Source: Candidatus Acetothermia bacterium (GTDB lineage: Bacteria > Bipolaricaulota > Bipolaricaulia > RBG-16-55-9 > DRXL01). Taken from it: a stretch of 37,683 bases of DNA. The notes beneath the pieces are model-generated. The model was not told the DNA's origin. It searched no databases and worked only from the letters and a program-made list of their open reading frames with translations. Shown piece by piece: positions 1 to 29,289 of the stretch. Location of the stretch: NCBI GenBank assembly GCA_028275205.1, contig JAPWVB010000002.1, forward strand, positions 1 through 37,683, in the 5' to 3' direction. The position numbers and the translations under genes were made by a program. The stretch's first letter is position 1, and the number at the start of each line of letters is the position of its first letter.

Positions 1-1
1 A

Positions 2-1411
2 GAGCCCACGGAGATTCGCGCAATTCAGCTCACCGGAGCGACAGTCTACCCTCTGAAACGTCTGCAAGCTCTCATCGGGAAGCTCCCTCAGGGGCCGGTC
101 AATAACTTTGCGCTCTTGACGGCCCTCAAGCGCGTCTACGACCTCTATCGCGTCGAGGGCTATATATTAGTCAACTTCATCAAAGAGTCTCTTGCAGACG
201 GCGTGCTCACCGTGCGCATCACCGAGGGGAAGATCACCAAAGTCACGATCTCCAACGCGTGCAAGCCCGGCGCCAAGTCTGTGATCATCCCCAAGGTGTT
301 GGAATTCCCGCGACAGTGCACCTCGGAGATGGTCATCCGCAAGGCGCTGCGCCTGAAGGAAGGGGATCTCGTCAACGAGAACCCCTTGCGCGACAGCTTC
401 AGAAATCTCTTGCAGTTGGGATATTTTAAGCAAGATGGCGTGAACATCCAACCCAAGGTGCTCGACGAGTCCACCGGGGAAGTAGAACTGTTGGTCAGCG
501 TCGTCGAAGAAGATCAGCTTGGCAATCTCAAGGGAGGCTTGAGCTACAACCCTCAGGTGGGGCTGGTGGGGCAATTCAGCTTGGGATGGAAGAATATCTT
601 GGGGACAGCCCAAGATCTCGATCTGTCAGTTGATCGCGGGCTGGTCGGCAAAGCCGTCCTCAATTACTCCGTGAATTATAAGACGACCGCGTACTTCAGA
701 GAGTACAACTCCGTCGAGGTCTCGCTCTTCAACAACACATCGCAGCAGACCGATCCCAAACCCCACGAGATGACCAAGGCAGGCGCGACTTTCGCCGTGA
801 GCTACCCCGTGCTGTCCAATCTCACGCTGACGCTGCGCTTCCGCTACGAGAACGTCTGGAAGGCTGAGCCCATCAACGAGAAGAGTTTAATTATGTCCCT
901 GGGGCTGGATGTGGTCCACGACACGAGAAATAACCCACTCTTCCCAACCTCCGGGGGCGAAGTGATCTTCATGGGGGAGCAAGCGGGCAAGTTCGCCGTG
1001 GGCACAGAGTTCACCAAGCTCCAAGGGATCTGGACCCATCATTGGATGACTCTTGAGCGCCAGACGATCTCCGTCAGGCTCTATGGGGCTCTGGGCTTGA
1101 CCCTGCCCTCGCAAGAGCGCTTTGGGTTTGGCGGGGTGATGACCGTGCGCGGCTGGGAGATGCGCTTCACTGAGCGATTTGCTTTGGCCAATCTCGAATA
1201 TCGCATGGAGCTCGCCGAAAACATTTGGGGCGTCTTCTACTATGACGCCGGGTGGGCGGAGGAGGTGGGATGGCGACAGTCGCTCGGCTTTGAGATGCGC
1301 TTGGTGACAGGCTTCGTGGGAAACGTGCGATTCATCTTGGCCTGGCCGTTCTACGAGACGGGCCTGCAGATCGCACCGGTCTTTCAGTTTGGCTTTGGCA
1401 CGATGTTCTAA
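2..1411 (+). CDS. bamA: BamA/Omp85-family outer-membrane protein assembly factor, 5'-truncated by the window edge (last POTRA plus surface-antigen beta-barrel)
   Basis: The reading frame is open from nt 2, with no stop upstream of the TTG at 116, so the gene enters from the left edge. The N-terminal part is POTRA-like (LTVRITEGKITKVTI). The C-terminal part has alternating Gly/aromatic beta-strands and ends ...FQFGFGTMF, a C-terminal Phe OMP beta-signal. It ends in a double stop (TAATAA). A skp-like gene and fabZ follow, as in classical bamA clusters. Confidence 0.8.
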   Translation, partial: EPTEIRAIQLTGATVYPLKRLQALIGKLPQGPVNNFALLTALKRVYDLYRVEGYILVNFIKESLADGVLTVRITEGKITKVTISNACKPGAKSVIIPKVLEFPRQCTSEMVIRKALRLKEGDLVNENPLRDSFRNLLQLGYFKQDGVNIQPKVLDESTGEVELLVSVVEEDQLGNLKGGLSYNPQVGLVGQFSLGWKNILGTAQDLDLSVDRGLVGKAVLNYSVNYKTTAYFREYNSVEVSLFNNTSQQTDPKPHEMTKAGATFAVSYPVLSNLTLTLRFRYENVWKAEPINEKSLIMSLGLDVVHDTRNNPLFPTSGGEVIFMGEQAGKFAVGTEFTKLQGIWTHHWMTLERQTISVRLYGALGLTLPSQERFGFGGVMTVRGWEMRFTERFALANLEYRMELAENIWGVFYYDAGWAEEVGWRQSLGFEMRLVTGFVGNVRFILAWPFYETGLQIAPVFQFGFGTMF

Positions 1412-1436
1412 TAACTCTTACGAAGGAGGAAACGCT

Positions 1437-1988
1437 ATGCAAATCAGAATTCTGCTTGGGATCGGCCTTGTGGCGGCGGCGCTGGTGTTGGGAGGATGTC
1501 AGTCCCAAGGGGGTGCGCAAAATCTCGATGACTTGCGCGCCAAGATCGCTCAGCTCGAAAAGGAAGTCCAGGACTTAAAAGCTCAGCTCGCCCAAAGCGG
1601 GAAGGGCCTGCGGATCGCTTACATCAACGCAGAAAAAGTCTTCCAAGACTACAAGAAGACTGGCGAGGCCGTGGAGAAATTCCGCGCCGAAGCCGAGAAG
1701 AAGCAAAGCGAGCTCAAGGCCCTCCAAGATAAATTTAAGAAGGGGCTGATGAGCGAGGAGGAGTTCAATCGAGAGGCAGCCCGCATCCAACAAGAGCTCC
1801 AGCGCCTGGACTTGGAGCTGACCGCGCAGATCCAAGGGGAGATGATCAAAGCCGTGGAGCAAGTTGCTAAGGAGCGTGGGTATCACTGGGTGACCCAGCG
1901 CAAGGACGTCGTCCTCTACGCCGATCCCCAAGTGCTCGAAGATATTACATACGATGTGCTGAAGATTCTCAATGCTCAAGGGCAGTGA
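1437..1988 (+). CDS. skp: OmpH/Skp-family periplasmic chaperone, lipoprotein form
   Basis: The ATG at 1437 is preceded by GGAGGA (1424-1429); the ORF-track start at 1389 is an upstream extension. There is a signal peptide with a lipobox (LVLGGC). The body is a coiled coil rich in K/E/Q (YINAEKVFQDYKKTGEAVEKFRAEAEKKQSELKALQDKF), typical of OmpH. It lies directly after bamA. Confidence 0.78.
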   Translation: MQIRILLGIGLVAAALVLGGCQSQGGAQNLDDLRAKIAQLEKEVQDLKAQLAQSGKGLRIAYINAEKVFQDYKKTGEAVEKFRAEAEKKQSELKALQDKFKKGLMSEEEFNREAARIQQELQRLDLELTAQIQGEMIKAVEQVAKERGYHWVTQRKDVVLYADPQVLEDITYDVLKILNAQGQ

Positions 1989-7053: not shown

Positions 7054-10000
7054 CTAGGGCGAGCCGAACGACAATCGGCTATCGGTGGGCGAGTACCGCA
7101 CCCGCGCCGTGGGGAAAGCGTTGATCTGGGCCTGGACCCAGATCCGTTGGCTATCGCTGTAGAGCCCAAGCTGCCAGCACCCGCGACAGAACTGCTTGAC
7201 TATCCCCAATTGCAGCGCCGTCCACCGCTGCGCCCCAAGATCGTACTCGCCCCCAAACGTCAGCTCCCACTCGTTCCAAAGCCATTGTGTCTCCAGATTG
7301 AATCGCCTGAGCGCGAAACGATTGAGATCGAAGTTCGCTCCGAGACGATGCGCGCCCCAGCTTATCTTCAGAATCGTATCTTCAAACTGGCGCTCCGCAA
7401 ACTTATACCCCGTAGAGAGCTGAAGATTCAGCAAGCTCGCGCTCACTGTCAGCCCCACCCTCTGCAAAAGATATGCGTTCAGATCGTACTCAACATCGAA
7501 GCGCGTCTCAAGCCCAAGGAGCGTCTCTTTGAGGGAGATCTGCAGCGGCTCGAAAGCCCTCTTTATAAAGTCGTAACGGACGGAGAGGGCGGGCCTGAAG
7601 GGCACAGTGGCCCAGGTCGCCCGCGCTGCCAACGTGTGCACAAGGGTGAGCGTATCGAAGCTCAAAGGGCTCTGCCCGAAGACTCTTCTATATGAGTACG
7701 TCGCTTCTGCGCTCACCCCAGGGAGCGGGCGCAGGCTCATCCCTACAGTCAGCTCATAGGCGTCTCGGCGGTGCTGAGCTGGCTCATAGAATGAGAGCCG
7801 ATAGCTCGCGCTCCCCTGCACCGTGATGAGCTCGTTCCCCAGTGCTAACGATTGCACTCCTATGAGGGCGTCCCAGCGGGCACTCTCATCGAGGCTCTCT
7901 TGATCGAGCTTCTTCTCGCGATACCGTCCCCAACTGAACGTCCCCAGTACCGAGAGGGGCAGCGACCCGATGCGCAGCGGCACCAGCGAGAGCGAAAACT
8001 CTGGGGCTTTCTCTAAAAAGCGATAGAGCACCGTCTCTTCGCGCTCTTCCGGCAGAACTAAATACTGATCGCGGCTCCACAGCACATTCCAACGCACAAG
8101 ATGAGCGCCTCCCGAGAGGGCGATCCGCGAGGAGAGCCGTTGAATCTCCTGCTGGAGCACCCCAGTCCGCCAGGAGATCGTCCCCGACAGCGTCATAGAG
8201 AAGGGCAGCGTCGCTCGATGGGTCCAATCTGTGGCCCACGACTCCCCGCGCCCCACCAGGCGATAGACCGAGATCTGCCCCTGCGAAGAGAAGAATCTAT
8301 AGCGATATTCGATCCCCATGCCCACCTCAGGGAGCTTCGTATAGTAATCTATGAGCACGGTGCCGGTGTTGTCTTTATCTATCACGAAGGGCCAGCGCCA
8401 GCGCAGATACCAGCCCCGCTCAGGGATCTGCCCAAAATCGGGCAGAAGGGGGTTCTTCGTCTCTTCTTTGAGCGAGGCAAAGTAGACCGGGGCCCAGAAG
8501 ACCGGGACTCCGTACGTCTTCAGGGTGATATTTGTGGCCCAGATGGACTCGTTGGGCTCCAGGCGCACCGTCCCGGCAGCGAGCGAATAATCTGAGCACG
8601 AGATGGGGCCGCACGAGCACGTCGTCACCTCGCCGCGAGTGATCTCCAAGAGCTTCAGATGCCCTTCTGGGGAGAAGGTCGCGCGCGCTGCGCTCCCCGC
8701 AAATCGCAAGATCTCTTGCTTTTTCGCGGCGCTCTCAAAGCGTGTCTCCCCAAGGAAGTCTCGAACGTGCGCGACCCAGGAGGGCTTCATCTGGATCTCG
8801 GCTGCCGTCAAGGTCCCCTGCTCATACGTGATCTGAGCCCTCTCAAGGAGCGCTTCGTCGGTTTGCCACGAGGCGCCATCCCGGCGAATACGAAGCTCCA
8901 GGCGCTCCGCCTGGGCCTTCAGGCCCTCTTCTTCGAAGACGACCTCTCCCTCGGCAACGATCTGCCACTGCTCTGAGGAGCGTCGTGCTTGCACTCTGTG
9001 CGCCGTCAGATGGCTCTTCTCATAGCTTAGTTCGACATGGCCCTCGGCGGAGATCTCGCTCCAATCATGCGTAACAGTCAAGCGATCGGCGTGGAGATCG
9101 AGCGCGAGGGGCGGGAGCTCTTGCGCCCATCCGTTTGCGCTTCCCAGCGCTATAATGAGCGCGAACGGCACGAGCCGCCGCAGCCGTGCAAACAGATCGA
9201 GCCGGCTGAGCCGATCGAGCCAGATCAACAGCACCACCCCGATCACCAAGAAGAGCAGATTGGGCGCCCACGGGGCGAGCACAGGGTCCAGCACCCCGCG
9301 CTTGCCCAACGTCGAGAGCCATAGTAATAATCCCTGATAGCATCCGACCAAAAGCACGCTGATGATCACGCCGGCTGCGCGCCCCCGCGGCGCTCCCCCT
9401 TGGGCAAAGATCAAGCTGAGCGGTGCCCCAAAGAGCGCGAAGATCAGCGCGGAGAAGGGCACCGCGATCTTCGAGTGCACCTCCACGATCAAGCTCTCTG
9501 CTCCCAAGCCACTGCGGCGAAGCACTTCGATCTGCCGGAAAAGCTCCGCAATGCTCATCTCATGCGGGGTCCGCTGCTCCACGAAGAGCCGCTGCAAGAA
9601 CGGCCCCGCCCGCAAAGAGAGCTTCTCAAACGTCACCGTGTACTCGAAGCGACCATCAGGAGTGAGCTTGTGGAGCTTGCCGTCGGTTAAGCGCCAATAG
9701 TCGCCGTCCCAGACCCCCTCAGCAGCGACGATGATCTTGGGGAAGCGCCCCTCAAGCTCCGCGAGGTACTCCCCGCCCCCCTTGTCGAAGATCATCACGT
9801 TCACAAGCTTTTTCGTCGCGGGGTCGTAGCGCTCAATGTACGCATAAGCCGTCTCGCTGAGCTTTATGAACGTGGACTCGCGGATCTGGGGGACCGAGCG
9901 CATGAAGAAGATCTCCCGCAAGAGATCATAATAGCGATGGTTGGCCCAGGGCATCCACAGCTCCCCCACGGCAAACGCGGCCATAGTCGTGATCAGGCCC

Positions 10001-10314
10001 ATCAAGACCACGGGGAGCATCAATCTGCGCAAGGAGAATCCTGCCGCCTGCAGGGCGATCAATTCCCGATCGTGGCTCAATCTTCCCAATGCCCAGAAGA
10101 TCGCAAACAGCACTCCCACCGGCAGCCCGTAGACTAAGAGCTCTGGCAACCGATACCCTAGCATCTGAAAGATCGTCGCGATAGAGATATTGCGGTCGAG
10201 CATGAAGTCCGAGAGCTGCGGAATCAGATTGAGCACGATGAAGAGCACAAAGCCCACGACAGCCAGCACGAACGGGAAGAGCATCTCTCGAATGAGATAC
10301 CGATCGACCAACAT
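7054..10314 (-). CDS. In-frame fusion of an LptF/LptG-family LPS-export permease (aa 1-~365, nt 9220-10314) with an LptD/OstA-type outer-membrane LPS-assembly protein (aa ~398-1086, nt 7054-9123)
   Basis: The N-terminus (MLVDRYLIREMLFPFVLAVVGFVLFIVLN) and the layout of 3 TM + ~150-aa periplasmic insert + 3 TM fit YjgP/YjgQ (LptF/G). Next comes RLRRLVPFALIIALGSANGWA|QE, which looks like a signal peptide. After that are OstA-like beta repeats (LTVTHDWSEISAEGHVELSYEKSHLTAHRVQA...). LptD barrel-type motifs follow (KTYGVPVFWAPVYFASL, NPLLPDFGQIPERGWYLRWRWPF) within a ~600-aa beta-rich region. There is no stop codon anywhere in the 3261 nt. Confidence 0.78.
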   Translation of the reverse strand: MLVDRYLIREMLFPFVLAVVGFVLFIVLNLIPQLSDFMLDRNISIATIFQMLGYRLPELLVYGLPVGVLFAIFWALGRLSHDRELIALQAAGFSLRRLMLPVVLMGLITTMAAFAVGELWMPWANHRYYDLLREIFFMRSVPQIRESTFIKLSETAYAYIERYDPATKKLVNVMIFDKGGGEYLAELEGRFPKIIVAAEGVWDGDYWRLTDGKLHKLTPDGRFEYTVTFEKLSLRAGPFLQRLFVEQRTPHEMSIAELFRQIEVLRRSGLGAESLIVEVHSKIAVPFSALIFALFGAPLSLIFAQGGAPRGRAAGVIISVLLVGCYQGLLLWLSTLGKRGVLDPVLAPWAPNLLFLVIGVVLLIWLDRLSRLDLFARLRRLVPFALIIALGSANGWAQELPPLALDLHADRLTVTHDWSEISAEGHVELSYEKSHLTAHRVQARRSSEQWQIVAEGEVVFEEEGLKAQAERLELRIRRDGASWQTDEALLERAQITYEQGTLTAAEIQMKPSWVAHVRDFLGETRFESAAKKQEILRFAGSAARATFSPEGHLKLLEITRGEVTTCSCGPISCSDYSLAAGTVRLEPNESIWATNITLKTYGVPVFWAPVYFASLKEETKNPLLPDFGQIPERGWYLRWRWPFVIDKDNTGTVLIDYYTKLPEVGMGIEYRYRFFSSQGQISVYRLVGRGESWATDWTHRATLPFSMTLSGTISWRTGVLQQEIQRLSSRIALSGGAHLVRWNVLWSRDQYLVLPEEREETVLYRFLEKAPEFSLSLVPLRIGSLPLSVLGTFSWGRYREKKLDQESLDESARWDALIGVQSLALGNELITVQGSASYRLSFYEPAQHRRDAYELTVGMSLRPLPGVSAEATYSYRRVFGQSPLSFDTLTLVHTLAARATWATVPFRPALSVRYDFIKRAFEPLQISLKETLLGLETRFDVEYDLNAYLLQRVGLTVSASLLNLQLSTGYKFAERQFEDTILKISWGAHRLGANFDLNRFALRRFNLETQWLWNEWELTFGGEYDLGAQRWTALQLGIVKQFCRGCWQLGLYSDSQRIWVQAQINAFPTARVRYSPTDSRLSFGSP

Positions 10315-16622: not shown

Positions 16623-19600
16623 TTACCCTGGCCAGCAGCTTGCCGTCTCGAAGCCGCTCGCTTGCGCGGGCACACAGAGCCGCGTGAACTCCTCAAACGG
16701 CAAGAGCGACTGATTCGCCGCGTTCTTGATGATGAACGGGTTGCTGAACGGCAGGTAGAACCCAGGGACGCGCCCAAGACCCGTAATGAAGATGAAGATC
16801 GTATTGGTCTGGGTGCGCTCTGGGGTACCGTCTCCGTTGACGTCGAGCAGGAGCTCGATGCGAGCAGCCGAGACGGTGTCGCTCAAGGGTATGGAGTAGA
16901 TAACCCGTCCGTTGCTGCGCACGGAGCCAGCGAGAGTGAGCTGGGTCTGCTGGCCGGTGACCTGCGGGACGGGCTGAGCTGTCGCCGCGCCCTCGGTCTG
17001 CACACTGACGCCCTCGATGAGGCCGTTGACGGCGAGCGAGATCTGATAGGGCCGATCGCTGTTCCAGCCCGTAGCCCCCTGGACGATGAGGTAGAGCTTA
17101 TCGGTGCCCATGATGAAGAGCCCGCCGGCCCCAAGAGGGATATATGGTCGCGGTGTCGGCGTGGGCGGTGCGCTCGTCGTCTGCACAGTGATGCTCTTCG
17201 ATTGCGTGTTGGAGAGCCCTTGGTCGTCGGTGACGCGCAGCGTCACTGTATAAGTTCGGGCTTGCGAGAAGGCAAAAGCGACGCGCACGCCTTGGGCGTC
17301 GAAGCGCCCATCACTGTCGAAGTCCCAGTCGTAACGGACAATGCGCCCATCGGGATCAGTCGAGCACGACGCGTCGAACGTGACGGGCTGATTGACGATG
17401 GGAGTGGTCGGGCTGAACGTGAAGCACGCCGTTGGGGCGCGGTTTTGCGGAGGCGCAGTAGTTCCGACTTGGAAGCTTGTGAACGCGCTCGTCCACGTCG
17501 CCGACGGCGCGACGCTCTGGATGCGGCGAGCAAGCTCCGCGCGGAATGTTTCGGGGTTGAGCCAGCTTGTGCTCTGCAGGCCGTTGAGCCCCAAATCTAC
17601 AGGTTGCGCGATCGCGACGGCGTGGAGATACTCCGTGCCCTCCGGCCCGGTGATCGCGAGAGTATATGGCCCATCGGGCAGGGTGTACGTCCCCGCGCTC
17701 AAGAGATTCTGGCGCGAGAACGAGTTCGGGAAGACTTGGGAGACTCGACCCGCGGGGTCAACGTCGAAGACGTAGACATACGCTTGGGCGCCCAGACGCA
17801 AGAAGATCTGCAATCTCTCGCCGATGCGGTAGCTCGTCTTATCGGTGCTGATCGAGATCGAGAGCTGGCTGGGCGTCGAGGCCCGAACGGTGATCTGGCG
17901 AGAGTTATTGGTCTCGTCAGATTCGGAGATCTGTCTGAGGGCGTCGGCAGTGACGGTGAACGTCTCTGAGGAGCTGTTGAGCCGTCGTGCGAAGTCCACT
18001 CGCACCGAGGCTCCGGCGCGCAGCCCAGTGACGCTCTGGCGAGCCGTTCCCGCGCTATCTTGCACCTCGACGACGAACGGCCCGGCGTCGGCGTTCCCGA
18101 TGTTGCGCACGATCGCAGTCAGCGTGAGCGAGCTGCCCACGGCGGGATCGCGCGGGGAGTAGTCAAGAGAGTCTACCGTCAGATCGGGCAGGCGCGTCTC
18201 GGCTAACGCCTCAATGCGCACTTGTGTCGAGTTATTCGTCTCGTTCGATTCGTCAACTTGGTTGGTGACGTCGGCAGTGATCGTGAAGATCTCTGTAGCG
18301 TTATTCTGGCGCCGAGCGAACGCTATCGAGACGGAGCTTGCGGCTCCCAGCCCCGAGAGCGTCCGACGATCTATGCCGGCGCTGTCGCGGATCTCGACAA
18401 TGAACGGCCCAGCGGCGCTCTCGCCCTGATTGCGCACGACGACGGTGAAATTGATGGTCTCGCCGAGCCGCGGCGTCCGCGGCGTCCAGTCAACCCCAGC
18501 AATAGTAAGATCGGGCTTTCTCTGAACTTGAGGCTGAGCGTCTACCCGGATCTGCGCAGAATTATTCGTCTCGTCGAGCTCGTCTATCTGATTAGTTGCG
18601 TCCACGACGATCGTGAAGAACTCTGTAGTGTTATTGACTCGGCGGGTGAAGCTGACGGTCGCTGTGCTCCCGACTGCGAGCCCCGAAAGCGTCTGGCGGT
18701 CTGTTCCGGCGCTGTCGCGCACCTCAACGATGAATGGGCCGGCGTTCGCTTGGCCTTGGTTGCGCACGACTACAGAGAGCGTGACGTTCTGGCCGACGGT
18801 GAGCGTGCGCGGGGACCAATCGGTGCTTGCGATCGCTAGGTCGGGTTTCAGAGAGGGCTGCGTCGCGGTGACGCGCAGCTCCGCTGAGTTATTGGTCTCG
18901 TTGGATTCGTTCACTTGGTTGGTCGCGTCAGCGACGACCGTGAAGGTCTCCGTCGCTTGGTTGACGCGGCGAGTGAACGAAAAGCTCGTCGAACCCCCGG
19001 CGTTCAGGCCCGAAACCGTGCGACGATCGGTGCCGCCGCTGTCGCGGATCTCGATGACGAACGGGCCGGCGTCGGCGTTTCCAATATTGCGCACGATCCC
19101 GCTCACCGTGACGAAATCCCCGACGCGGGGGTTGGACGGACTAGAAGTGAGCCCGCTCACAGTGAGATCAGGCTGGCCGGGCGGTGGGCTGGACTGAGCA
19201 AGATTGAGCCGGCCAGAGCCAAACTGCAGCGGCGAGCCCATAGGGACGGCATCGCCCTTGAGGCGAGCTTCGAGCTGCCCTGCCGTCAGGGATGGGTTTT
19301 CTGAAAGCAAGAGCGCCGCAGCCCCAGCGACGTGCGGCGCGGCCGCTGATGTGCCAAAAAACTCTGAGTACGTAAACGTCGAGACGCGATCGGGCCCGAC
19401 GATATCAGGCTTGGAGAGCCCGGCGTTGGTCGGCCCTTGGGAGCTGTAGGGCGCGATGGGGCCGGTCGTCCAATTCTGGCGGTTGACCGCGCCGACGGTC
19501 AGGGCATTGGGCGAATCCCCCGGCGCGATGATGCTATTGGAAGGCACAGGGTACTCGACGTCATGATTGAGGCTGAAGAGCGAGAACGTCCGCGGCGCGG

Positions 19601-20798
19601 GGTTCCCGTCGGCTTTAATCTGAATGTGATATGTCCCAGGGACGAACGACTGATAGAAGAGACTTTCGATCGGAGGCTCGGTGCCAGATTGAATGCGTTG
19701 CGACGCTGCGACTTGAGTGCCGTTGCTGTTGAACAGATAGAGATCGTAATCGTTGGCTGAGCCGGGCCAGTCGTTCCACGTGAGAAAGACCCCGATCTGA
19801 TCCCCCGCGTTCACGGTGATCGTCAAAGATTCATCGCCGGAGGCGAACTCGTGCCATTTGTTGCCGTTCGTGTCACGGAACGTCCCCTGCCAGTGGCGCC
19901 GCGCGTAATTGCCCGCAGCGTTGACCCACAGCACTCCACGGCTTCGGGCATCAGCGACGATATTGTTAATCACCCCTGTGCCGTCATAGAAGTTCGTATT
20001 GAACCAGCCCACTGAGTGATTGATGATCTTTGCGCCCTGGCGGATCGCTTCTTCCTTGGCGTTCTCTAGGTCAACTTCGTCGCCAACTTTCATTAAGATG
20101 AGTTGGGCTTGTGGAGCCATGTCATAAACGATCTCGGCGACGGCCGTGCCGTGATTCGTCCCGGATTCGATCCCCGTGCCAGTGTAGTCAAACGTTTGGA
20201 TGCCGCCAGGGAGTTCCCCGCGGCTCTGGGCTGCTGTAAGCCCAGCAAACCCCAGATCAATCACGGCGATTTTGACGCCCTGGCCACGAAAACCCAAAGA
20301 ATGATAGTTCGATGCGCCGGTGAGCGCGACCCCTTCGCTGACCACGAGCGTCTGAGGAACGAGCGGAGGCCGCACGAACTGAACGACGCCTCCCGCTTGG
20401 AGGAGCGCAGCCCGCAAGAGCCCAAGATTCATGGGCATCTGGACCTTCCACGCAAACTTGGAGGTTGCCACGACCTGCCCACGCATGAACGCGATCTGCC
20501 TCTTCAGTAGGTCTTGAGCAGCGGGGTCTTGGCTGATGCTCTCAGGCACTTGCCAGATCACCGTCACCATGTTCCCCCAAACGGGGACGCGGAACTGCGC
20601 GGCGGCTTGGGCCGCGGCTTGCGCTTGGCCCTGCTCCCCAAGCTTCAGAATCTGCTCGAGCACGCTGTCTATCCGAGGGTCGTGTTCCAACCGAGCGATG
20701 CTCTTAGGATCAGAGGGCTCTTGGGTCAGCCCCATCGTGCCGAGCACCACTAAGACGAATCCACACAGAATCCAAAAGAGATAGTGATGTCTGCGCAT
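16623..20798 (-). CDS. Large secreted multidomain S8 subtilisin-family serine protease: signal anchor, prodomain, S8 with an inserted beta-sandwich, 4x CARDB, DUF4384-like, PKD, and an unassigned C-terminal domain
   Basis: Catalytic triad contexts are KIAVIDLGF (Asp), GTNHGTAVAEIV (His) and FFGTSAAAPHVAGAAALL (Ser), with oxyanion VNAAGN. Four ~110-aa repeats (PDLT/AI...VRN[IQ]G...AGPF[VI][VI]E[IV]...SG[LT]...NETNNS) are CARDB-like. YVYVFDVDPAGRVSQVFPN is DUF4384-like. FTFSPTTPIVNQPVTFDASCSTDPDGRIVRYDWDFDSDG is PKD. An AAGGAG RBS lies upstream of ATG 20798. Confidence 0.9.
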   Translation of the reverse strand: MRRHHYLFWILCGFVLVVLGTMGLTQEPSDPKSIARLEHDPRIDSVLEQILKLGEQGQAQAAAQAAAQFRVPVWGNMVTVIWQVPESISQDPAAQDLLKRQIAFMRGQVVATSKFAWKVQMPMNLGLLRAALLQAGGVVQFVRPPLVPQTLVVSEGVALTGASNYHSLGFRGQGVKIAVIDLGFAGLTAAQSRGELPGGIQTFDYTGTGIESGTNHGTAVAEIVYDMAPQAQLILMKVGDEVDLENAKEEAIRQGAKIINHSVGWFNTNFYDGTGVINNIVADARSRGVLWVNAAGNYARRHWQGTFRDTNGNKWHEFASGDESLTITVNAGDQIGVFLTWNDWPGSANDYDLYLFNSNGTQVAASQRIQSGTEPPIESLFYQSFVPGTYHIQIKADGNPAPRTFSLFSLNHDVEYPVPSNSIIAPGDSPNALTVGAVNRQNWTTGPIAPYSSQGPTNAGLSKPDIVGPDRVSTFTYSEFFGTSAAAPHVAGAAALLLSENPSLTAGQLEARLKGDAVPMGSPLQFGSGRLNLAQSSPPPGQPDLTVSGLTSSPSNPRVGDFVTVSGIVRNIGNADAGPFVIEIRDSGGTDRRTVSGLNAGGSTSFSFTRRVNQATETFTVVADATNQVNESNETNNSAELRVTATQPSLKPDLAIASTDWSPRTLTVGQNVTLSVVVRNQGQANAGPFIVEVRDSAGTDRQTLSGLAVGSTATVSFTRRVNNTTEFFTIVVDATNQIDELDETNNSAQIRVDAQPQVQRKPDLTIAGVDWTPRTPRLGETINFTVVVRNQGESAAGPFIVEIRDSAGIDRRTLSGLGAASSVSIAFARRQNNATEIFTITADVTNQVDESNETNNSTQVRIEALAETRLPDLTVDSLDYSPRDPAVGSSLTLTAIVRNIGNADAGPFVVEVQDSAGTARQSVTGLRAGASVRVDFARRLNSSSETFTVTADALRQISESDETNNSRQITVRASTPSQLSISISTDKTSYRIGERLQIFLRLGAQAYVYVFDVDPAGRVSQVFPNSFSRQNLLSAGTYTLPDGPYTLAITGPEGTEYLHAVAIAQPVDLGLNGLQSTSWLNPETFRAELARRIQSVAPSATWTSAFTSFQVGTTAPPQNRAPTACFTFSPTTPIVNQPVTFDASCSTDPDGRIVRYDWDFDSDGRFDAQGVRVAFAFSQARTYTVTLRVTDDQGLSNTQSKSITVQTTSAPPTPTPRPYIPLGAGGLFIMGTDKLYLIVQGATGWNSDRPYQISLAVNGLIEGVSVQTEGAATAQPVPQVTGQQTQLTLAGSVRSNGRVIYSIPLSDTVSAARIELLLDVNGDGTPERTQTNTIFIFITGLGRVPGFYLPFSNPFIIKNAANQSLLPFEEFTRLCVPAQASGFETASCWPG
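17880..19180 (-). repeat. Four diverged tandem coding repeats of ~330 nt (the CARDB modules of the protease)
   Basis: The plus-strand landmark ga[ga]ttatt[cg]gtctcgt... recurs at ~17901, 18229, 18559 and 18887, a period of ~328-330 nt. The repeats are in frame. Array boundaries are approximate. Confidence 0.8.
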
Positions 20799-20813: not shown

Positions 20814-21632
20814 TTACAGCCCTGGCTGGGCCGGTGGGCGAACGAACTTCACCGCCGGATCACGGGCTAACGCAACTAACTGATGGATCGGAACGAGCAC
20901 GCGCATCAACCCCGAGGGCGAGCGCGCTTCAACAATGAGATTATGGGTCGGAGCTAGTTGGGCCTCCGGGGAGACTAGCTCGACGATTACTCGCACTCGC
21001 AAGCCCCAGAGCTCTAATTTCTGTTGGGGCGCAAATTCGTACCAATCGGGCATGAGCATGAGCGCGTAGAGCACCGAATCTAAGCGAACGCCTTCAGGGG
21101 GCTTGGGGGGCTTGACCCCCGGCACGACCGTCAGCTCTTCGACCGCCAGGGGCAGCGTTGGGTCGGACACGACGGAGAGTTGAACTAGCCTCTGCCCGAT
21201 CTCGTCGAGGATCGCCGACGCGCTTACGGTAGTTATGGGGGCCACAATCAGCTCATAGCCCTCGCTCTGGGCTGGTCGAAGATTATATTTCGAGAGCAGC
21301 CCGTCGGCGCGGAGCCATAAGAGCTCTCCATCCACGAAGAGATGAGGGAACTTGAGGCGCTCTCGCTCGTTCTCCGGAGTACAGTCCAGACACGGCTGCG
21401 TCCCAAGAAAGTACTTCACAGTAGAGTCCCGGGCGATCCGCACCGAAAAACCCGCTTGCTTTGCAGATTCGATGATCTTGGCCATGTCAGCCTCGATGCG
21501 CGGGAGCAAGACGCGATAATACTTACCCGCAAAGAGAATGGGGTCGGCCATGAGGGGGATCGTTGGCTCGTTGTGGAATATACTCAGCGAGAGAGCTGTC
21601 AAGAGCACGCCGAGTATGAAGATCTTCAGCAT
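20814..21632 (-). CDS. Exported or membrane-anchored protein of unknown function whose C-terminal domain resembles the subtilase prodomain
   Basis: N-terminal hydrophobic anchor (MLKIFILGVLLTALSLSIF), with an AAGGAG RBS. The C-terminus (...NLIVEARSPSGLMRVLVPIHQLVALARDPAVKFVRPPAQPGL) aligns by eye with the protease N-terminal region (GQVVATSKFAWKVQMPMNLGLLRAALLQAGGVVQFVRPPLVP). It lies 15 nt upstream of the protease start. Confidence 0.6.
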   Translation of the reverse strand: MLKIFILGVLLTALSLSIFHNEPTIPLMADPILFAGKYYRVLLPRIEADMAKIIESAKQAGFSVRIARDSTVKYFLGTQPCLDCTPENERERLKFPHLFVDGELLWLRADGLLSKYNLRPAQSEGYELIVAPITTVSASAILDEIGQRLVQLSVVSDPTLPLAVEELTVVPGVKPPKPPEGVRLDSVLYALMLMPDWYEFAPQQKLELWGLRVRVIVELVSPEAQLAPTHNLIVEARSPSGLMRVLVPIHQLVALARDPAVKFVRPPAQPGL

Positions 21633-21654
21633 TGAGGGCTCCTTTCGTAAGTCT

Positions 21655-22350
21655 TCAGGACTTCTTCAAGCGCGTGGCGATGTTCTGGGCGATCTGGGCC
21701 CATTCCGCTGCGCTGACGACTTGCTCGATGTACGCAGTCAGCGTCTGGGGAATCAGGGGATTGCGCGCCAGACGCAGTTGCACGGCGGACTTGATCGCGT
21801 TGGCGTCGTCGAGCTTGCCCCCACCTCGCACATGGTCTTCTAAAGCTCCCGCAGCTTCAGTAATCGCCGTGTCTACGGCTTCGAGGGTGAGCACGAGCGT
21901 CGCCGTCCCGAATCGAATGGTGAGATTGATTGTGATGCCTTTGCTTGCCAGAAGCGTCTTCACTTCCGAGAGCGTCATCTTGCGCTCCAAGAGGTCGTCA
22001 TTGATGACATCGAGGGGGACGCCCTTAGTGAGTCCCTCGAATGTCTTATCTATAAGCATAGTGACGGGCAGCTCTTCTAAGAGCGCCCGCGCGATGATCT
22101 GCAAGACCCCCTCGCGCAGCGAGATCGGAGCTGAAGATTGCTTCAGTCTCTGGCAGAGCCGCAGCGCGGTGTCGGGGGTGATGCGCTTATCTGAAAAGCC
22201 CTTGTCAAAGCCTGCTTTCAACGTCTGCAGGTCCGAGACCCCAAGCTCAGCAAAACACTTATAGACGTCTTGAGGGGTTGGCTGGGCGAAAGCATCGCCC
22301 AAGCCTCCCAAAAGCCCAAGCGTGAGAAGAATCCCCATCAGCCATCTCAT
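21655..22350 (-). CDS. Exported protein of unknown function, predicted mostly helical
   Basis: Signal peptide MRWLMGILLTLGLLGGLGDAFA|QP, with a GAGGTGA RBS. Its start overlaps the anti-sigma stop by 4 nt (ATGA). I recognise no family motif. Confidence 0.6.
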   Translation of the reverse strand: MRWLMGILLTLGLLGGLGDAFAQPTPQDVYKCFAELGVSDLQTLKAGFDKGFSDKRITPDTALRLCQRLKQSSAPISLREGVLQIIARALLEELPVTMLIDKTFEGLTKGVPLDVINDDLLERKMTLSEVKTLLASKGITINLTIRFGTATLVLTLEAVDTAITEAAGALEDHVRGGGKLDDANAIKSAVQLRLARNPLIPQTLTAYIEQVVSAAEWAQIAQNIATRLKKS

Positions 22351-22856
22351 GGCTGCTCACCTCGCGGTGCTATGTATAAGACCGAATTGATCTTGTCGTC
22401 AAACGTATGGACGAATTCCGAAGCGCGCGGGTCGTAGACCCACCGCTCGCCGTCTACTATAAATCCGTACTCATACCGACCAGGCTTGATATCATCGGGG
22501 AGCCGAATCCACCAGACGCCGCTGCGATCGGGGCCGTTCATGGGGATGGGCTCCCACAGCGTAAACTGACTCGCCAAGCTCACGCTCTTGGCGTTGGGGT
22601 AGACCAAGCAGAGCACCTGAGGGTCATGACAAGGAGCCCCTGAGAGATTCCCCCCTACCCATAGGCCAATCACGAAGACTGCGGCGACAGCGACCGCGCC
22701 CGCCCCGACAAGCCCCCAGCGCCATCGCGGCGCCGGCCGACTTTCGGGAAGCTCCTCGATGATCTCATACTCAAGATCAGCAATCCGATCGCGATGGGCC
22801 TCAGCGTACTGAGTCAACGTCTCTTTGAGCAGGGCTTCTAGCTCATGGTCGTGCAT
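22347..22856 (-). CDS. Single-pass membrane anti-sigma factor candidate with an extracytoplasmic CBM48/AMPK-beta glycogen-binding-like (E-set) domain
   Basis: It overlaps the ECF sigma gene stop by 14 nt, with an AGGAG RBS. It has a short cytoplasmic helix (MHDHELEALLKETLTQYAEAHRDRI), one TM helix (WGLVGAGAVAVAAVFVIGLWVGG), and then VYPNAKSVSLASQFTLWEPIPMNG...GVWWIRLPDDIKPGRYEYGFIVDGERWVYDP. No HxxxCxxC zinc motif is present. Confidence 0.6.
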   Translation of the reverse strand: MHDHELEALLKETLTQYAEAHRDRIADLEYEIIEELPESRPAPRWRWGLVGAGAVAVAAVFVIGLWVGGNLSGAPCHDPQVLCLVYPNAKSVSLASQFTLWEPIPMNGPDRSGVWWIRLPDDIKPGRYEYGFIVDGERWVYDPRASEFVHTFDDKINSVLYIAPRGEQP

Positions 22857-23399
22857 GGTGTGCCACTCCTTTCTGCTCGAGAATGCGTTTCAATTCGGCC
22901 TTGGCGCGATGGAGCCGCGTCTTGACCGTCCCTTCGGGCAGCCCCAAGGCCTCCGCAATCTCTTTGTAATCTAAATCCGCATAATAGCGCAGCACCAAGG
23001 GCATTCTATAAGCGGGCTTCAGCTGCTCGATGGCCTCGCGGATCGTGCGCGTGCGCTCCTCTTGCGCGAGCCGCTGCGCAGGATCGCTCCCTTTTGTTAA
23101 TTTCGAGATATATTTGAGCGGGGCGAAGAGCCGCTCGCGGCGCAGCTTGTTCTTGCATACGTTCGCGGTCACCGCGAAGATCCACGTCGAGAATCGCTTT
23201 TCAAGGTGGAACGTATGCAGCCCTTCGTAAGCCCGAATGAACGCGTCATGGGCGGCATCTTCGGCATCGGCGGGATTGCCCAAGATCCCCAAGGCAATCC
23301 CAAAGACCGCATCTTTGTAGCGTCTCACGATCTCACCCCAGGCGTCCACATCCCCGTGGAGCGCCCGCTGAATTAACTCCAACTCCCCCGCGCCCATGC
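22843..23399 (-). CDS. ECF-type (sigma-24/group 4) RNA polymerase sigma factor
   Basis: Region 2 is DAEDAAHDAFIRAYEGLHTF...FSTWIFAVTANVCKN. Region 4 HTH is DYKEIAEALGLPEGTVKTRLHRAKAELK. The start is ATG 23399, preceded by AGGAGGA. The ORF-track start at 23448 would run through the putative promoter. Confidence 0.9.
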
Positions 23400-23419
23400 T
23401 TCCTCCTGTGTGCAGAGTA

Positions 23420-23448
23420 TATACAGACTGCTCATGGCAAAGTTTCAA
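23420..23448 (-). promoter_or_regulatory. Promoter candidate for the ECF operon: TTGAAA-17 nt-TGTATA
   Basis: On the minus strand, TTGAAA corresponds to plus-strand 23443-23448 and TGTATA to plus-strand 20-25 of 234xx (23420-23425). A ~14-nt leader containing AGGAGGA follows. I saw no ECF-type GGAAC...CGTC motif. Confidence 0.3.
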
Positions 23449-23588: not shown

Positions 23589-24815
23589 ATGCGGCGTTCG
23601 TTTGAGATCGGGATTCTCTTGATAATCTTGGCATTGTCAGGGTGTACCCTTGCGCAAGCTCCCTTTGCGTTCTTCGTGGCCTCTCCGACGGTTGGGGAGG
23701 CCCCGCTGAAAGTCAGCTTCAACGCGTCGGGCTCCAGCGACCCCGACGGCACCATCGCCCAATACGAGTGGGATTTTGACAACAACGGCTCCATAGACGC
23801 CACCGGGGTCACCGCGACCCATACGTATTCATCGTCGGGCCTCTACACCGCGGTGCTGACCGTGACGGACAATACAAATCTCAAGAGCAAGTTTACGCTC
23901 CTCATCACCGTGCTGGAACCGACGATCTTCTTCTCTCGATGGGACGGTGGGAGCAATTTCGGGATCTTTCGCATGAACACAAACGGCACTGCGCTCACGC
24001 AGCTGACGATGGGCATAGACGCCTGGCCGGCTGTGGCTCCTAACGGCCGCCAGCTCGTGGCGTTCGCCCGCGACATGGACCCTGATCCTGCGGGTTTTCA
24101 GTTCGATATCTTCACGATGCTCCCCAACGGTACCCTGCAGACAGATCTTACCCCGCAAAGCCCAAGCCAAGAGATCCAACCGACTTGGTCGCCTGACGCA
24201 ACAAAGATCGCGTTTGCGACCAATCGCGATGGACACTTTGAAATCTATAAGATGAACGCCGACGGGACGAGTCCCTCTCGCGTCACGACCGTCACGCCCA
24301 AAGACGCCTTCGCCCCACGCTGGTCGCCGACCAATCCCAATCTCTTGATCTTCGTGACGAACAACGACACCGCCCCAAACGCCCTCGACATCTGGAAGAT
24401 CAACGCCGACGGCACGGGGCTGACCAATCTCACCAACCGCCCCAGCTATAACGATGGGGCCATCTCGCCGCTCTCCGGGTTTCCTTCTCCGCCCAGCTGG
24501 TCGCCCGACGGCACCAAGATCGCCTTCACTTCAGATCAGACGGGGAATTTAGACATCTTCGTGATGAACGCCGACGGCACGAATATCGTTAGCCTCAATA
24601 CGTTCGCCTCGTCTAGCACAGCGAATCTGTCAACGTCGAATGAGTTCGACCCCTTCTGGCTCCCCAACGGACAGGAGATCGCGTTCGTCTCCGATCGCGA
24701 TGGGACGTATCAGATCTATAAAGTCAATCTCTCGACTGGGGCTGTGACCCAGCTGACCCCCGGCGGGATGAACCTCATGCCCGCCAGAACGAGCAGCACC
24801 ACGAACGAAAGATAG
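23589..24815 (+). CDS. Lipoprotein with an N-terminal PKD domain and a TolB-like (PD40/WD40-like) beta-propeller
   Basis: GAGGAGG RBS and lipobox (LALSGC). The PKD region is PLKVSFNASGSSDPDGTIAQYEWDFDNNG...YTAVLTVTDN. PD40-type repeats recur: P.WSPDGTKIAF.S.R.G...I[YF].MNADGT, appearing as WSPDATKIAFATNRDGHFEIYKMNADGT and WSPDGTKIAFTSDQTGNLDIFVMNADGT. Confidence 0.85.
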   Translation: MRRSFEIGILLIILALSGCTLAQAPFAFFVASPTVGEAPLKVSFNASGSSDPDGTIAQYEWDFDNNGSIDATGVTATHTYSSSGLYTAVLTVTDNTNLKSKFTLLITVLEPTIFFSRWDGGSNFGIFRMNTNGTALTQLTMGIDAWPAVAPNGRQLVAFARDMDPDPAGFQFDIFTMLPNGTLQTDLTPQSPSQEIQPTWSPDATKIAFATNRDGHFEIYKMNADGTSPSRVTTVTPKDAFAPRWSPTNPNLLIFVTNNDTAPNALDIWKINADGTGLTNLTNRPSYNDGAISPLSGFPSPPSWSPDGTKIAFTSDQTGNLDIFVMNADGTNIVSLNTFASSSTANLSTSNEFDPFWLPNGQEIAFVSDRDGTYQIYKVNLSTGAVTQLTPGGMNLMPARTSSTTNER

Positions 24816-27184: not shown

Positions 27185-28039
27185 ATGAATCCGATTCTTA
27201 TCGAGATCCCTATGCCCTTTGGCTGGCCAAGCTTGCAGATACGCTATTACGGCTTAATGTACGTGATCGCGATTCTCGTGGGGATATATCTGACGCGCCG
27301 CGAGTGCGCCCGCAAGGGGCTGCCCCTCACGCTCGACGACATCTTAGATTTTGTGCTGATCACCGTGCCTGTGGCGATCATCGGGGCGCGACTCTACTAT
27401 GTTGCCTTCCAATGGGCGAACTTCTACGTGCCCGGCGATCTGGGAAAGACGCTGCTCAATATTATCGCGATCTGGGAGGGCGGCTTAGCTATTCACGGGG
27501 GCATTCTCGCGGGGCTGCTCATGCTCTGGGTCTACTCTCGATGGAAGAGAGTCTCGTTGTGGCAGTTTGCCGACGCCGTGGCTCCCAGCATGATCTTGGG
27601 CCAAGCCCTCGGACGATTTGGAAACTTTATGAACGGCGATGCGTACGGGGTGCCGCTGGGGCCAGAATGGCCCCCGTGGCTCGATTGGGTCGGAGTCGTC
27701 TACAAAGAGGGTACGCCCGGATTCCAACAGTTTGGGTACATCCCCACCCACCCCACCATGCTCTATGAGATGTTCGGCGATCTCGTAATATTTGGGGTGC
27801 TGATGTGGCTGCGGAAGAAGGACTTCCAAGACGGATTTATCGCGTCGCTGTATATGGTGCTGTACTCGTTCTTGCGCTTCTGGATGGAGTTTTTGCGCGC
27901 AGACGCCCTCTGGCTCATCCCCGATGTGCTGCGAGCTGCCCAAGTGATCAGCGTCATTCTCTTTCTTGTCTTTGGGGCGTTCATTCTCGTGAAGAAGCTC
28001 TACGTGCGCAAGGCGATCGCCGCGCCGTCGGGCTCATAG
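27185..28039 (+). CDS. lgt: Prolipoprotein diacylglyceryl transferase Lgt
   Basis: Family motifs are present: YGLMYVIAILVG, GARLYYV, IWEGGLAIHGGI and GRFGNFMNGDAYG. Confidence 0.93.
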   Translation: MNPILIEIPMPFGWPSLQIRYYGLMYVIAILVGIYLTRRECARKGLPLTLDDILDFVLITVPVAIIGARLYYVAFQWANFYVPGDLGKTLLNIIAIWEGGLAIHGGILAGLLMLWVYSRWKRVSLWQFADAVAPSMILGQALGRFGNFMNGDAYGVPLGPEWPPWLDWVGVVYKEGTPGFQQFGYIPTHPTMLYEMFGDLVIFGVLMWLRKKDFQDGFIASLYMVLYSFLRFWMEFLRADALWLIPDVLRAAQVISVILFLVFGAFILVKKLYVRKAIAAPSGS

Positions 28040-28753
28040 CTGAAAGTCTTCCCCAAGATAGTACTTTCGCGCCAGAGGGTGAGAGGCGATCTCCTCAGGG
28101 CGACCGCTGAGCAGGAGCTTCCCCTCGTTGAGCAGATACGCGTAGTCCGTGACGCGCAGCGTCTCCCGCACGTTGTGATCAGTCACGACAACGCCGATCC
28201 CATCAGACGCTAACGCGCGCATGATCTTTTGGATCTCGGCGACGCTCAAGGGGTCTATCCCGGAGAACGGCTCGTCCAGCAAGAGGAACTTCGGGGAAGT
28301 CGCTAAAGCGCGCGCAATCTCCACACGGCGGCGCTCCCCGGCCGACAGCGTGTCTACCCGCTGATGCGCCAGATGGGCAATGCCGAGCTTCTCTAAAAGC
28401 TGCAGGGCTCTCATCTGACGCGCCCGCGGCTCCCGCTCCCACCGCTCCAAGACGAGCAACAGATTCTCGAGCGCGCTGAGCTTGCGGAAGACCGAGGGCT
28501 CTTGAGGCAGATAGTGAATGCCCGCTCGCGCGCGCGCATAGAAGGGCCACCGCCCAATGGGCCGCTCGTTTAAAAAGACCTCCCCGGACTCGTGAGCGAT
28601 CAGCCCCGTGATAATATAGAACGTCGTGGTCTTGCCCGCGCCATTGGCTCCCAGCAACCCCACGACCTTGCCGCTCTCGATCTGCAGCGAGACGCCATCA
28701 ACGACGCAGCGCCCGCTGTAGCTCTTGATCAAGCCTTCCGTACGTAGAATCAT
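28034..28753 (-). CDS. lptB: LPS export ABC transporter ATP-binding protein LptB
   Basis: Walker A is GLLGANGAGKTTTFY, the LptB-typical Q-loop context is IHYLPQEPSVFRKLS, the signature is LSAGERRRVEIARAL, and Walker B is LLLDEPFSGIDP. The length is 239 aa. Confidence 0.92.
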   Translation of the reverse strand: MILRTEGLIKSYSGRCVVDGVSLQIESGKVVGLLGANGAGKTTTFYIITGLIAHESGEVFLNERPIGRWPFYARARAGIHYLPQEPSVFRKLSALENLLLVLERWEREPRARQMRALQLLEKLGIAHLAHQRVDTLSAGERRRVEIARALATSPKFLLLDEPFSGIDPLSVAEIQKIMRALASDGIGVVVTDHNVRETLRVTDYAYLLNEGKLLLSGRPEEIASHPLARKYYLGEDFQL

Positions 28754-29289
28754 TTCTTCCGCAAGATGAGTCGCGCATCGTGGAGGATCGTGGCTCGCCC
28801 CGTCTCTGAAGAGTATTCAAAGCCCCGTCCCGTCAGGATGAACTCCTCGCTCTCGATGCGCACCGCTGATGATGTCGTCAAGATCTTCTTCTCGTTGCTC
28901 CACAAGAGATTCTCCGTGCTCAGCGAGAAGTCGCGCCCACTGACAACAATCTCCCCTGGCAGCTCGATATCCCCAGTGCGATTGTGCAGCTTCGCCAGAG
29001 GAGCGCGGACCGTGAGCGCTTCCTGCCCTTCGCTGTCGAAGAAGTGCAGCGTGATCTCCTCAGCAATGCTCATATCTTCCCCGATGGACAGCGCGGACGC
29101 GGCAAGCTCCCAAAGCTTCTTCCCGTGCTCATCGTAGCGCACGATATGGGCGCGATCAGCTGAAAGTATAGAAGCGCGAGAGTCTCTCATCTCCGGCCAC
29201 AGATGAGAGACCGACGACCAGAGCCAATAGAGCCCCCCGATGCTCCCAACGATCAGCCCCAGACCAAGGACTTGCGCCGCGCGAGACAT
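28750..29289 (-). CDS. lptC: LptC-like membrane-anchored periplasmic LPS-transport protein (OstA-fold)
   Basis: N-terminal TM anchor ([18 protein letters not shown]) followed by a ~150-aa beta-rich domain. It overlaps the lptB start by 4 nt. Size and position match lptC. Confidence 0.65.

Follow-up and report, generated by a model that had tools for sequence, protein, structure and literature searches.

An LptF/LptG-type permease and an LptD-like protein encoded in one reading frame in Candidatus Acetothermia and related bacteria, with a signal-peptide-like segment at the junction

In Escherichia coli, the Lpt system includes two distinct inner-membrane permeases, LptF and LptG, encoded by genes separate from that of the outer-membrane protein LptD, as well as LptA and the plug lipoprotein LptE. 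A different arrangement has been described in Thermotoga maritima, where the "pABC permease" G4FGC1 carries LptF/G, LptA-like and LptD-like domains, was found by mass spectrometry in the toga, in which it was significantly enriched, and, after modelling, was interpreted as a fusion permease by which lipids would pass from the inner membrane to the toga (Sexton et al. 2023, PMC10160955). The same report gave G4FGC1 as conserved in all Thermotogae with homologs in other phyla, listed it among the beta-barrel proteins with Sec signal sequences, and described T. maritima as being without lpx genes (PMC10160955). Here we analysed a stretch of 37,683 nucleotides (nt) from contig JAPWVB010000002.1 of a Candidatus Acetothermia bacterium, referred to as the window, in which a single open reading frame (ORF) encodes an LptF/LptG-type permease followed by an LptD-like part.

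Compared by its published description, G4FGC1 resembles the window protein in having an LptF/G domain, a jellyroll and an LptD-like barrel in one ORF and in the same order. The first-pass annotation, made from the sequence alone, had regarded this architecture as not characterised, which did not stand, since it had already been published for G4FGC1 (Sexton et al. 2023, PMC10160955). The two proteins belong to different phyla, that of Thermotoga being a toga-bearing sister phylum without lipopolysaccharide (LPS) in which the protein is conserved phylum-wide. The junction of the two halves, its cleavage, the conserved cysteines and the split relatives were not discussed for G4FGC1 in that paper and are addressed here for the family of the window protein. 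No named Thermotogota homolog was seen in the profile search with the C-terminal half or among its cluster names, and the sole locus labelled "Thermotoga sp." in our genome scan was L060, a frameshifted locus of a metagenome-assembled genome (MAG) with 27% identity. What is added to the Thermotoga report is thus the distribution in Bipolaricaulota and Fraserbacteria, the apparent signal-peptide origin of the junction with its cleavage motif, the split and fused relatives, and an LptD that standard hidden Markov models (HMMs) do not see.

The gene lies on the minus strand in the frame 7054..10314, a single ORF of 1086 amino acids (aa) with an ATG start, the N-terminus MLVDRYLIRE and its stop codon at 7054-7056. 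Its GC content (~0.59-0.61) is unremarkable against the rest of the window. The uninterrupted frame of 1086 codons recognised by the first-pass annotation was therefore borne out, the strand being a detail absent from it. Its two domain assignments and their order were likewise upheld by Pfam, alignment to PDB chains, the AlphaFold2 (AF2) model and Foldseek, and the motifs that it had quoted, YGVPVFWAPVYF and LLPDFGQIPERGWY, occur around aa 601-634. The AF2 model, built on an alignment of 59 fusion homologs (A2), has a mean predicted local distance difference test score (pLDDT) of 83 and shows three transmembrane (TM) helices, a jellyroll and three further TM helices, followed by a second jellyroll and a barrel, in line with the layout proposed earlier for the full chain.

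The LptF/LptG-type ABC permease domain spans aa 1-366 (9217..10314, minus strand). Pfam family PF03739 (LptF_LptG) covers aa 5-364 (profile positions 1-352 of 353) with E=1.3e-82 and 278 bits against a cutoff of 27.9, and aa 1-365 align to LptF chains of the PDB (E=1.5e-15). In the AF2 model, the helices of the permease are at aa 2-41, 45-81, 95-137, 273-305, 311-338 and 347-369, and the beta strands at aa 148-235 form the periplasmic jellyroll between TM3 and TM4. With Foldseek against the PDB, LptF/LptG chains rank after LptD (4e-15 to 1e-9), with target-normalised TM-scores of 0.6-0.7. The NCBIfam equivalogs for LptF (TIGR04407) and LptG (TIGR04408) gave end-to-end matches, yet below cutoff (187.7 bits against 230 and 170 bits against 240). 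Because both scores are under cutoff, this half is classed from its profile matches as a generic LptF/G, neither specifically LptF nor LptG, and a single generic LptF/G is seen in the window, unlike the two permeases of E. coli.

The C-terminal part is predicted to be a divergent LptD composed of an N-terminal beta-jellyroll (OstA/LptD_N-like; aa 398-568, 8611..9123, minus strand) and a large LptD-type outer-membrane beta-barrel (aa 569-1086, 7057..8610, minus strand). In the AF2 model, aa 405-1086 have a pLDDT of ~90, the jellyroll consisting of 11 long antiparallel strands (aa 405-564, pLDDT ~88-93) and the region from aa 569 to 1086 of about 30 strand segments (pLDDT ~90). The jellyroll segment is 160 aa long in the window protein and 126-246 aa across the family. 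The 14 best Foldseek matches in the PDB were all LptD (E 8.9e-25 to 6e-17, probability 1.0, 770-850 aligned columns), among them 8h1s_A (8.9e-25), 5iv9_A, 4q35_A and 9kn3_A; the target-normalised TM-scores to LptD structures were modest, at 0.35-0.50.

At the sequence level, LptD_N matched the window protein alone at aa 408-479 with E=0.003-0.006 and 17-18 bits, under its gathering score of 20.4, and a stretch of 145 residues matched Pseudomonas aeruginosa LptD 8h1r_A (E=6.7e-4). For family-level profile searches, we used an alignment of eight diverse C-terminal halves (A3), six of which were matched by LptD_N (best 2.1e-8). PF04453, the Pfam LptD family of the barrel, had no match in the window protein and a non-significant one (E=0.077) in one of the eight. 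Thus, of the family matches foreseen by the first-pass annotation, LptF_LptG was obtained strongly, LptD_N fell short of its gathering score and that to PF04453 was missing. The A3 profile matched 8h1r_A weakly (E=0.0034), but the conserved motifs align. The invariant TTCxC (C566, C568), with which the jellyroll ends, aligns to the cysteine closing the N-domain of P. aeruginosa LptD; FGvPVFWlPlY...PLlPeFG (PVFWxPxY...PLLPxFG) aligns to FPVFYTPY...GFLPPSF of 8h1r_A, the first barrel strands carrying W607, P609, P622 and P625; and the C-terminal CxxCW, with C1043 and C1046 near the C-terminus, aligns to CCW. In the columns of A2, C566, C568 and C1046 are found in all 59 homologs and C1043 in 52 of them. 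Shared with the proteobacterial Lpt system are the LptF/G fold, the LptB and LptC equivalogs, the jellyroll and barrel fold of LptD, the proline-rich first barrel strands, and the positions of the cysteines that in E. coli LptD link the end of the jellyroll to the C-terminus of the barrel. A proof of LptD identity by sequence only, which was attempted, fails on the missing PF04453 match and the high E value of the PDB profile search; the identity rests on the fold search and the motif alignment, sequence-only support being weak.

A homolog search returned about 59 full-length proteins of 980-1190 aa, with 99% to 29% identity, and all the named ones are from Ca. Bipolaricaulota or Acetothermia, one lying on a 1.7 Mb contig of Ca. 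Bipolaricaulis sibiricus. In a scan of species-representative genomes, 79 loci were identified, the best of which (L001, a Ca. Bipolaricaulota MAG) showed 94% identity. Both halves were detected in one stop-free frame at 58 loci with single-sequence phmmer, a number that includes the frameshifted L060, and a profile search detected the C-terminal domain in seven further long ORFs, giving a total of 65 fused loci. These are almost all labelled Bipolaricaulota, Acetothermia or Fraserbacteria, and their contigs include ones of 0.5-1.7 Mb. The frameshift of L060, which comes from a low-coverage MAG (~2.9x), is inside the permease half. Orthologs with the same fusion and a conserved junction, for which the first-pass annotation had suggested searching, are thus present at 65 loci originating from many studies and assemblers, and the joining of two neighbouring Lpt genes is real and extends across the lineage.

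Between the two domains lies a junction of about 30 residues (aa 367-397; 9124..9216, minus strand) with the features of a signal peptide, as the first-pass annotation had indicated. It consists of a net-positive n-region (DRLSRLDLFARLRR), a short hydrophobic core (LVPFALIIALG) and a c-region (SANGWA), with a predicted signal peptidase I site between A397 and Q398, and it is the sole low-confidence stretch of the AF2 model (pLDDT <50 at aa 372-374 and 383-403). In all fused sequences, a conserved D-R-L right after TM6 is followed by a net-positive stretch (n-region net charge +1 to +5), a hydrophobic core of 10-15 residues, small residues and then acidic residues or proline. The column statistics of A2 fit the (-3,-1) rule, with Ala at -1 in 46 of 59 sequences (Ser in 5, Gly in 1), G/A/S/T/V at -3 in 54 of 59, a bulky residue at -2, Gln at +1 in 36 of 59 and Glu at +2 in 37 of 59. 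The motif [G/A/S]-x-A/Q-E-P (here and below, a slash before the last residues marks the predicted cut) is therefore conserved at the junction, though the surrounding linker varies. The 19-residue hydropathy maximum of the junction is lower than those of TM1-6 (median 1.71 vs 1.97-2.68) while its 11-residue maximum is comparable to theirs, which indicates a short hydrophobic core. Other exported proteins of the window have signal peptides with similar ends (GDAFA/QPTP and ALTQA/SEQ).

The origin of this segment is suggested by relatives in which the halves are adjacent genes (L064, L065, L069 and L072, labelled Bacillota, Firmicutes or Natronincola). These pairs, as well as the cluster of L081, encode both proteins in the order and orientation of the window fusion, and LptC, LptB, BamA and Skp are encoded in the same cluster. 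They differ in having a stop, a ribosome-binding site (RBS) and an ATG between the genes, and an LptD with an ordinary N-terminal signal peptide. The split lptF/G encodes 358-370 aa and ends just past TM6 (...DRLK* or ...DSLR*, the asterisk being the stop); after 12-20 nt with a GGAG-type RBS, an ATG opens an LptD-like protein of 714-731 aa with a classical signal peptide. The C-terminal profile matches this protein of L064 with E=3e-36. The end of the signal peptide in L065, ...FVPSLGWA/QADRVRIAADRL, can be compared with ...GSANGWA/QELPPLALDLHADRL of the window protein, and split and fused forms place the first jellyroll strand equally far from the motif (~9-12 aa), so that no tether was added. 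The junction, from these comparisons, looks like the retained N-terminal signal peptide of a once-separate lptD gene.

The gene order in the L064/L081 clusters is TamB, BamA, Skp, LptF/G, LptD-like, LptC, a small LptA-like ORF, a 715-aa unknown, LptB and FabZ, and the L081 cluster also encodes LpxB, given which the Bacillota-labelled organisms of the split type may make LPS. The unknown (L064:10417-12564 and L081:11920-14073) is a conserved protein of 715-717 aa without Pfam match, located between the small LptA-like ORF and LptB; it starts with MLQFFRDGF..., ends with ...LLNLLNR.KQRF, and may be an uncharacterised Lpt component of diderm Bacillota-labelled MAGs. In L081, the ORF after lptF/G (L081:9173-10669) has only 498 aa and matches the barrel part alone (profile positions 177-608). 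It lacks the jellyroll, its called start is not followed by an obvious signal peptide, and it could represent another split point or a miscalled start.

Two readings of the fusion had been offered by the first-pass annotation, namely a polyprotein split at the internal segment and a covalently tethered conduit. The conserved cleavage motif and the spacing in split loci favour the former, and a polyprotein precursor cut by signal peptidase I is in our opinion the best reading and a moderately probable one. It is also in keeping with the lack of another route to a separate LptD, as no internal RBS or start offers one: the junction contains no Shine-Dalgarno-like motif and no suitable start codon, although the start of the fusion gene itself likewise has no obvious Shine-Dalgarno sequence. 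An internal start was considered for the sole in-frame start-type codon, GTG at aa 382, and rejected, as it has no such motif and falls past the basic n-region. After TM6 the chain would be in the cytoplasm, where the signal-peptide-like segment would re-engage Sec and thread the LptD part into the periplasm, to be cut by signal peptidase I past the conserved small-x-Ala motif (A397/Q398). The released LptD of ~690 aa would be assembled into the outer membrane by Skp and BamA, and the bridge would arise from non-covalent stacking of its jellyroll on LptC and on the jellyroll of LptF/G, with LptF/G, LptB and LptC as the putative inner-membrane ABC extractor. The purpose of the fusion would then be co-expression and 1:1 synthesis and not a covalent tether.

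Such processing has a mechanistic precedent in FbcH, the cytochrome b-c1 precursor of Bradyrhizobium japonicum, in which a polytopic inner-membrane protein and an exported protein are made as one chain, the internal signal peptide between them being cleaved once translocation has taken place. FbcH is a member of an unrelated family, and neither of its products leaves the inner membrane, so it serves as a precedent for the mechanism only. The toga enrichment of G4FGC1, too, is more readily understood with a barrel half detached from the six-TM inner-membrane domain.

Several points weigh against cleavage. A hydrophobic segment is topologically needed at the junction whether or not it is cut, and therefore only the conservation of the c-region argues specifically for cleavage. 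Some members have longer uncharged stretches at the junction, up to ~35 residues, which could be a stable TM7. The Thermotoga protein was drawn as one envelope-spanning chain (Sexton et al. 2023, PMC10160955). Finally, so old and conserved a fusion might be expected to confer more than co-expression.

These points lead to the strongest alternative, in which the junction is an uncleaved seventh TM helix (a signal anchor) and one chain resides in both membranes as a hard-wired lipid bridge, the helices sitting in the inner membrane and the barrel in the outer one, while the two jellyrolls, that of LptD and that of LptF/G, stack on each other in cis. We consider this unlikely, though it deserves to be taken seriously. 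The retention of the fusion phylum-wide, down to 29% identity, and the recurrence of similar fusions in other lineages are in its favour, together with the envelope-spanning depiction in Thermotoga (PMC10160955), the long uncharged stretches in some junctions, the range of jellyroll lengths (126-246 aa, as if tuned as a spacer), and an lptC-lptB operon without lptA. However, the junction core is shorter and weaker than TM1-6 by its 19-residue hydropathy median (1.71 vs 1.97-2.68), the AF2 junction helix has a pLDDT <50 and is unpacked against the permease, and the conserved small-x-Ala/Gln-Glu-Pro motif would serve no evident purpose in a permanent anchor. The spacing of ~9-12 residues would also pin the N-terminal edge of the jellyroll at the inner membrane, which would be hard to square with head-to-tail stacking through the encoded LptC. 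Moreover, relatives include split as well as fused forms, so a covalent link is not essential. If uncut, the protein would be a covalent lipid bridge of fixed length that also staples a toga-type outer membrane to the cell body, a role that seems to us rather doubtful. With the polyprotein and the true two-membrane protein set out as distinct readings, the published envelope-spanning model for Thermotoga becomes testable.

In the fused lineages there is one LptF/G domain per locus, which points to a homodimer as the permease, each transporter then entailing the synthesis of two LptD moieties. A search with the N-domain for an LptF/G paralog standing alone in Bipolaricaulota yielded, for the most part, fragments and genes of the split type, plus one locus of a different kind (L080:416-4797, JGI metagenome 3300035199). 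Here, an unfused LptF/G (380 aa, 41% identity with the window N-domain) ends in the basic region of the junction (...DRLSRMELGRWFSRKK*), and 30 nt on, there is a second LptF/G fused to an LptD-like part of at least 1070 aa in total, cut by the contig end. Two explanations are suggested: in some relatives the permease may be a heterodimer, each transporter having one LptD, or the locus may have arisen by tandem duplication followed by loss of one LptD part.

The exhaustive profile search with the C-terminal half returned 2,483 representatives at E<=0.001. Fused forms ranked first, followed by stand-alone proteins of 770-808 aa that match from about residue 30, and then by hundreds of proteins of 700-780 aa. 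Three Bacillota-labelled clusters (P0168, P0169 and P0228) are also fused, with linkers that are unrelated to the Bipolaricaulota linker and end in signal-peptide-like AVA/E, AAA/G and AAA/E, respectively; P0228 keeps a vestigial MNK start. By these sequences, the fusion of adjacent lptF/G and lptD genes seems to have occurred on more than one occasion, every time with the signal peptide retained.

An earlier survey of diderm Firmicutes, in which a single LptF/G is present, could detect no LptD/E (Antunes et al. 2016, PMC5007114), and the reported absence of LptD from atypical diderm lineages was used in arguments on the origin of the outer membrane (PMC5007114, PMC8871954). Our results place a predicted LptD, too divergent for the standard LptD HMM, in atypical Terrabacterial diderms. 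In Bipolaricaulota, Acetothermia and Fraserbacteria it is fused, Bacillota-labelled MAGs have it in either form, split or fused, and relatives extend to Limnochordia and Atribacterota. This LptD was probably missed by these surveys as PF04453 fails on the divergent barrel. In the Atribacterota and Limnochordia clusters (P0206 and P0241), hypothetical proteins of ~900-964 aa match the C-terminal profile with E~1e-27 to 1e-29; the match starts at about residue 420-500, the preceding N-terminal part being without an assigned family, and they appear as HMM-invisible LptD relatives. A different type of Lpt fusion, the tandem LptG+LptF of 760-860 aa in which one chain holds the two permeases, was seen in many proteins among hits P0063-P0104 of the homolog search (Acidobacteria, Chloracidobacterium and others).

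The partners of the permease are encoded about 18 kb from the fusion gene. LptC, with an N-terminal TM anchor and a jellyroll (28750..29289, minus strand; PF06835, 7.1e-15; TIGR04409, 68.5 bits against a cutoff of 38), probably partners the permease, and its gene overlaps that of the LptB ABC ATPase (28034..28753, minus strand; TIGR04406, 315 bits against a cutoff of 240; Pfam ABC_tran, 1.3e-35), the two forming one operon. Unlike the E. coli order lptC-lptA-lptB, lptA is absent between lptC and lptB in the window, and the LptD jellyroll of the family, with its 126-246 aa, may substitute for LptA. No LptE candidate was detected among the window ORFs with Pfam and NCBIfam, and the Terrabacterial Lpt system was suggested to lack lipoprotein components (10.1101/2021.05.31.446380). 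Thus, neither LptA nor LptE of the E. coli system was found in the window.

As for the cargo, the first-pass annotation had spoken of an LPS conduit, which is doubtful. LPS genes were not found in the first closed Acetothermia genome, for which a simple Thermotoga-like diderm envelope was inferred (Hao et al. 2018, PMC6092417), and a toga-like outer membrane was reported in the first Bipolaricaulota isolate (2025 preprint). In the window, none of the 30 ORFs scanned matched an Lpx family. Because of this literature on the phylum and the absence of lpx genes from the window, the cargo is probably a non-LPS lipid, a glycolipid or another outer-leaflet lipid of a toga-type outer membrane being likelier. 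A complete Lpt-type machine in a phylum reported to be without LPS raises the question of which lipid is moved, and bears on how LPS-free outer membranes are built.

It could also be argued that the machine, with its architecture unchanged, exports something other than a bulk outer-leaflet lipid, the main candidate being surface lipoproteins, as proposed for an LptD homolog of the LPS-free spirochete Borrelia. The Borrelia homolog is reported to aid the flipping of surface lipoproteins in an LPS-less outer membrane (bioRxiv 10.1101/2022.12.21.521298); LptDE-mediated lipoprotein sorting has been reported elsewhere (PMC12065857), Terrabacteria are said to be without Lol (10.1101/2021.05.31.446380), and the window encodes Lgt and Lnt. 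We nevertheless find this improbable, as the complete LptB/LptC/LptF-G extractor with its jellyrolls is a lipid-extraction module, the fusion gene has no operon link to lipoprotein genes in the window, and the Thermotoga toga is enriched in glycolipids and diabolic-acid lipids that its authors linked to the fusion (PMC10160955).

The chance that the long ORF is an assembly or sequencing artefact, in which a lost stop or a 1-nt indel joined two genes, is negligible: some genomes do have lptF/G and an lptD-like gene side by side as distinct genes, and the frame is broken in L060 with its ~2.9x coverage, but the same frame is uninterrupted at 65 independent loci, including those on contigs of 0.5-1.7 Mb, which rules the artefact out, and the junction is kept as protein sequence among homologs and conceals no stop, RBS or start. 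The first-pass annotation had held that a misassembly would be indicated if close relatives all had two separate genes here, which proved misleading, since the split forms sit in other lineages and explain the origin of the junction without refuting the fusion.

Elsewhere in the window, a BamA-like Omp85 protein (1..1411, plus strand; Pfam Omp85, 1.2e-24, with POTRA; C-terminal part of TIGR03303 BamA) runs off the window start, its frame being open back to position 1, and is followed by Skp/OmpH (1389-1988, plus strand; Pfam OmpH, 1.6e-16). These two would fold the released LptD barrel into the outer membrane. FabZ directly follows Skp, with no lpxD or lpxA between them, and then come a formiminotransferase and MurD. 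The region 1-2415 looks like a relic of an ancestral LPS/outer-membrane cluster (bamA-skp-lpxD-fabZ-lpxA) after lpx loss.

Two genes of lipoprotein maturation adjoin the lptC-lptB operon, encoding the apolipoprotein N-acyltransferase Lnt (24716-26233, minus strand) and Lgt (27185-28039, plus strand); Terrabacteria were reported to be without Lol and without ancestral outer-membrane lipoproteins (10.1101/2021.05.31.446380). Between the fusion gene and this operon, a secreted S8 subtilase of 1391 aa with four CARDB repeats, DUF11, DUF4384 and PKD is encoded on the minus strand (16623-20798). On the same strand as the subtilase, the region 20814-23448 holds two ORFs without family match, an ORF with a CBM48 domain and an extracytoplasmic function (ECF) sigma factor.

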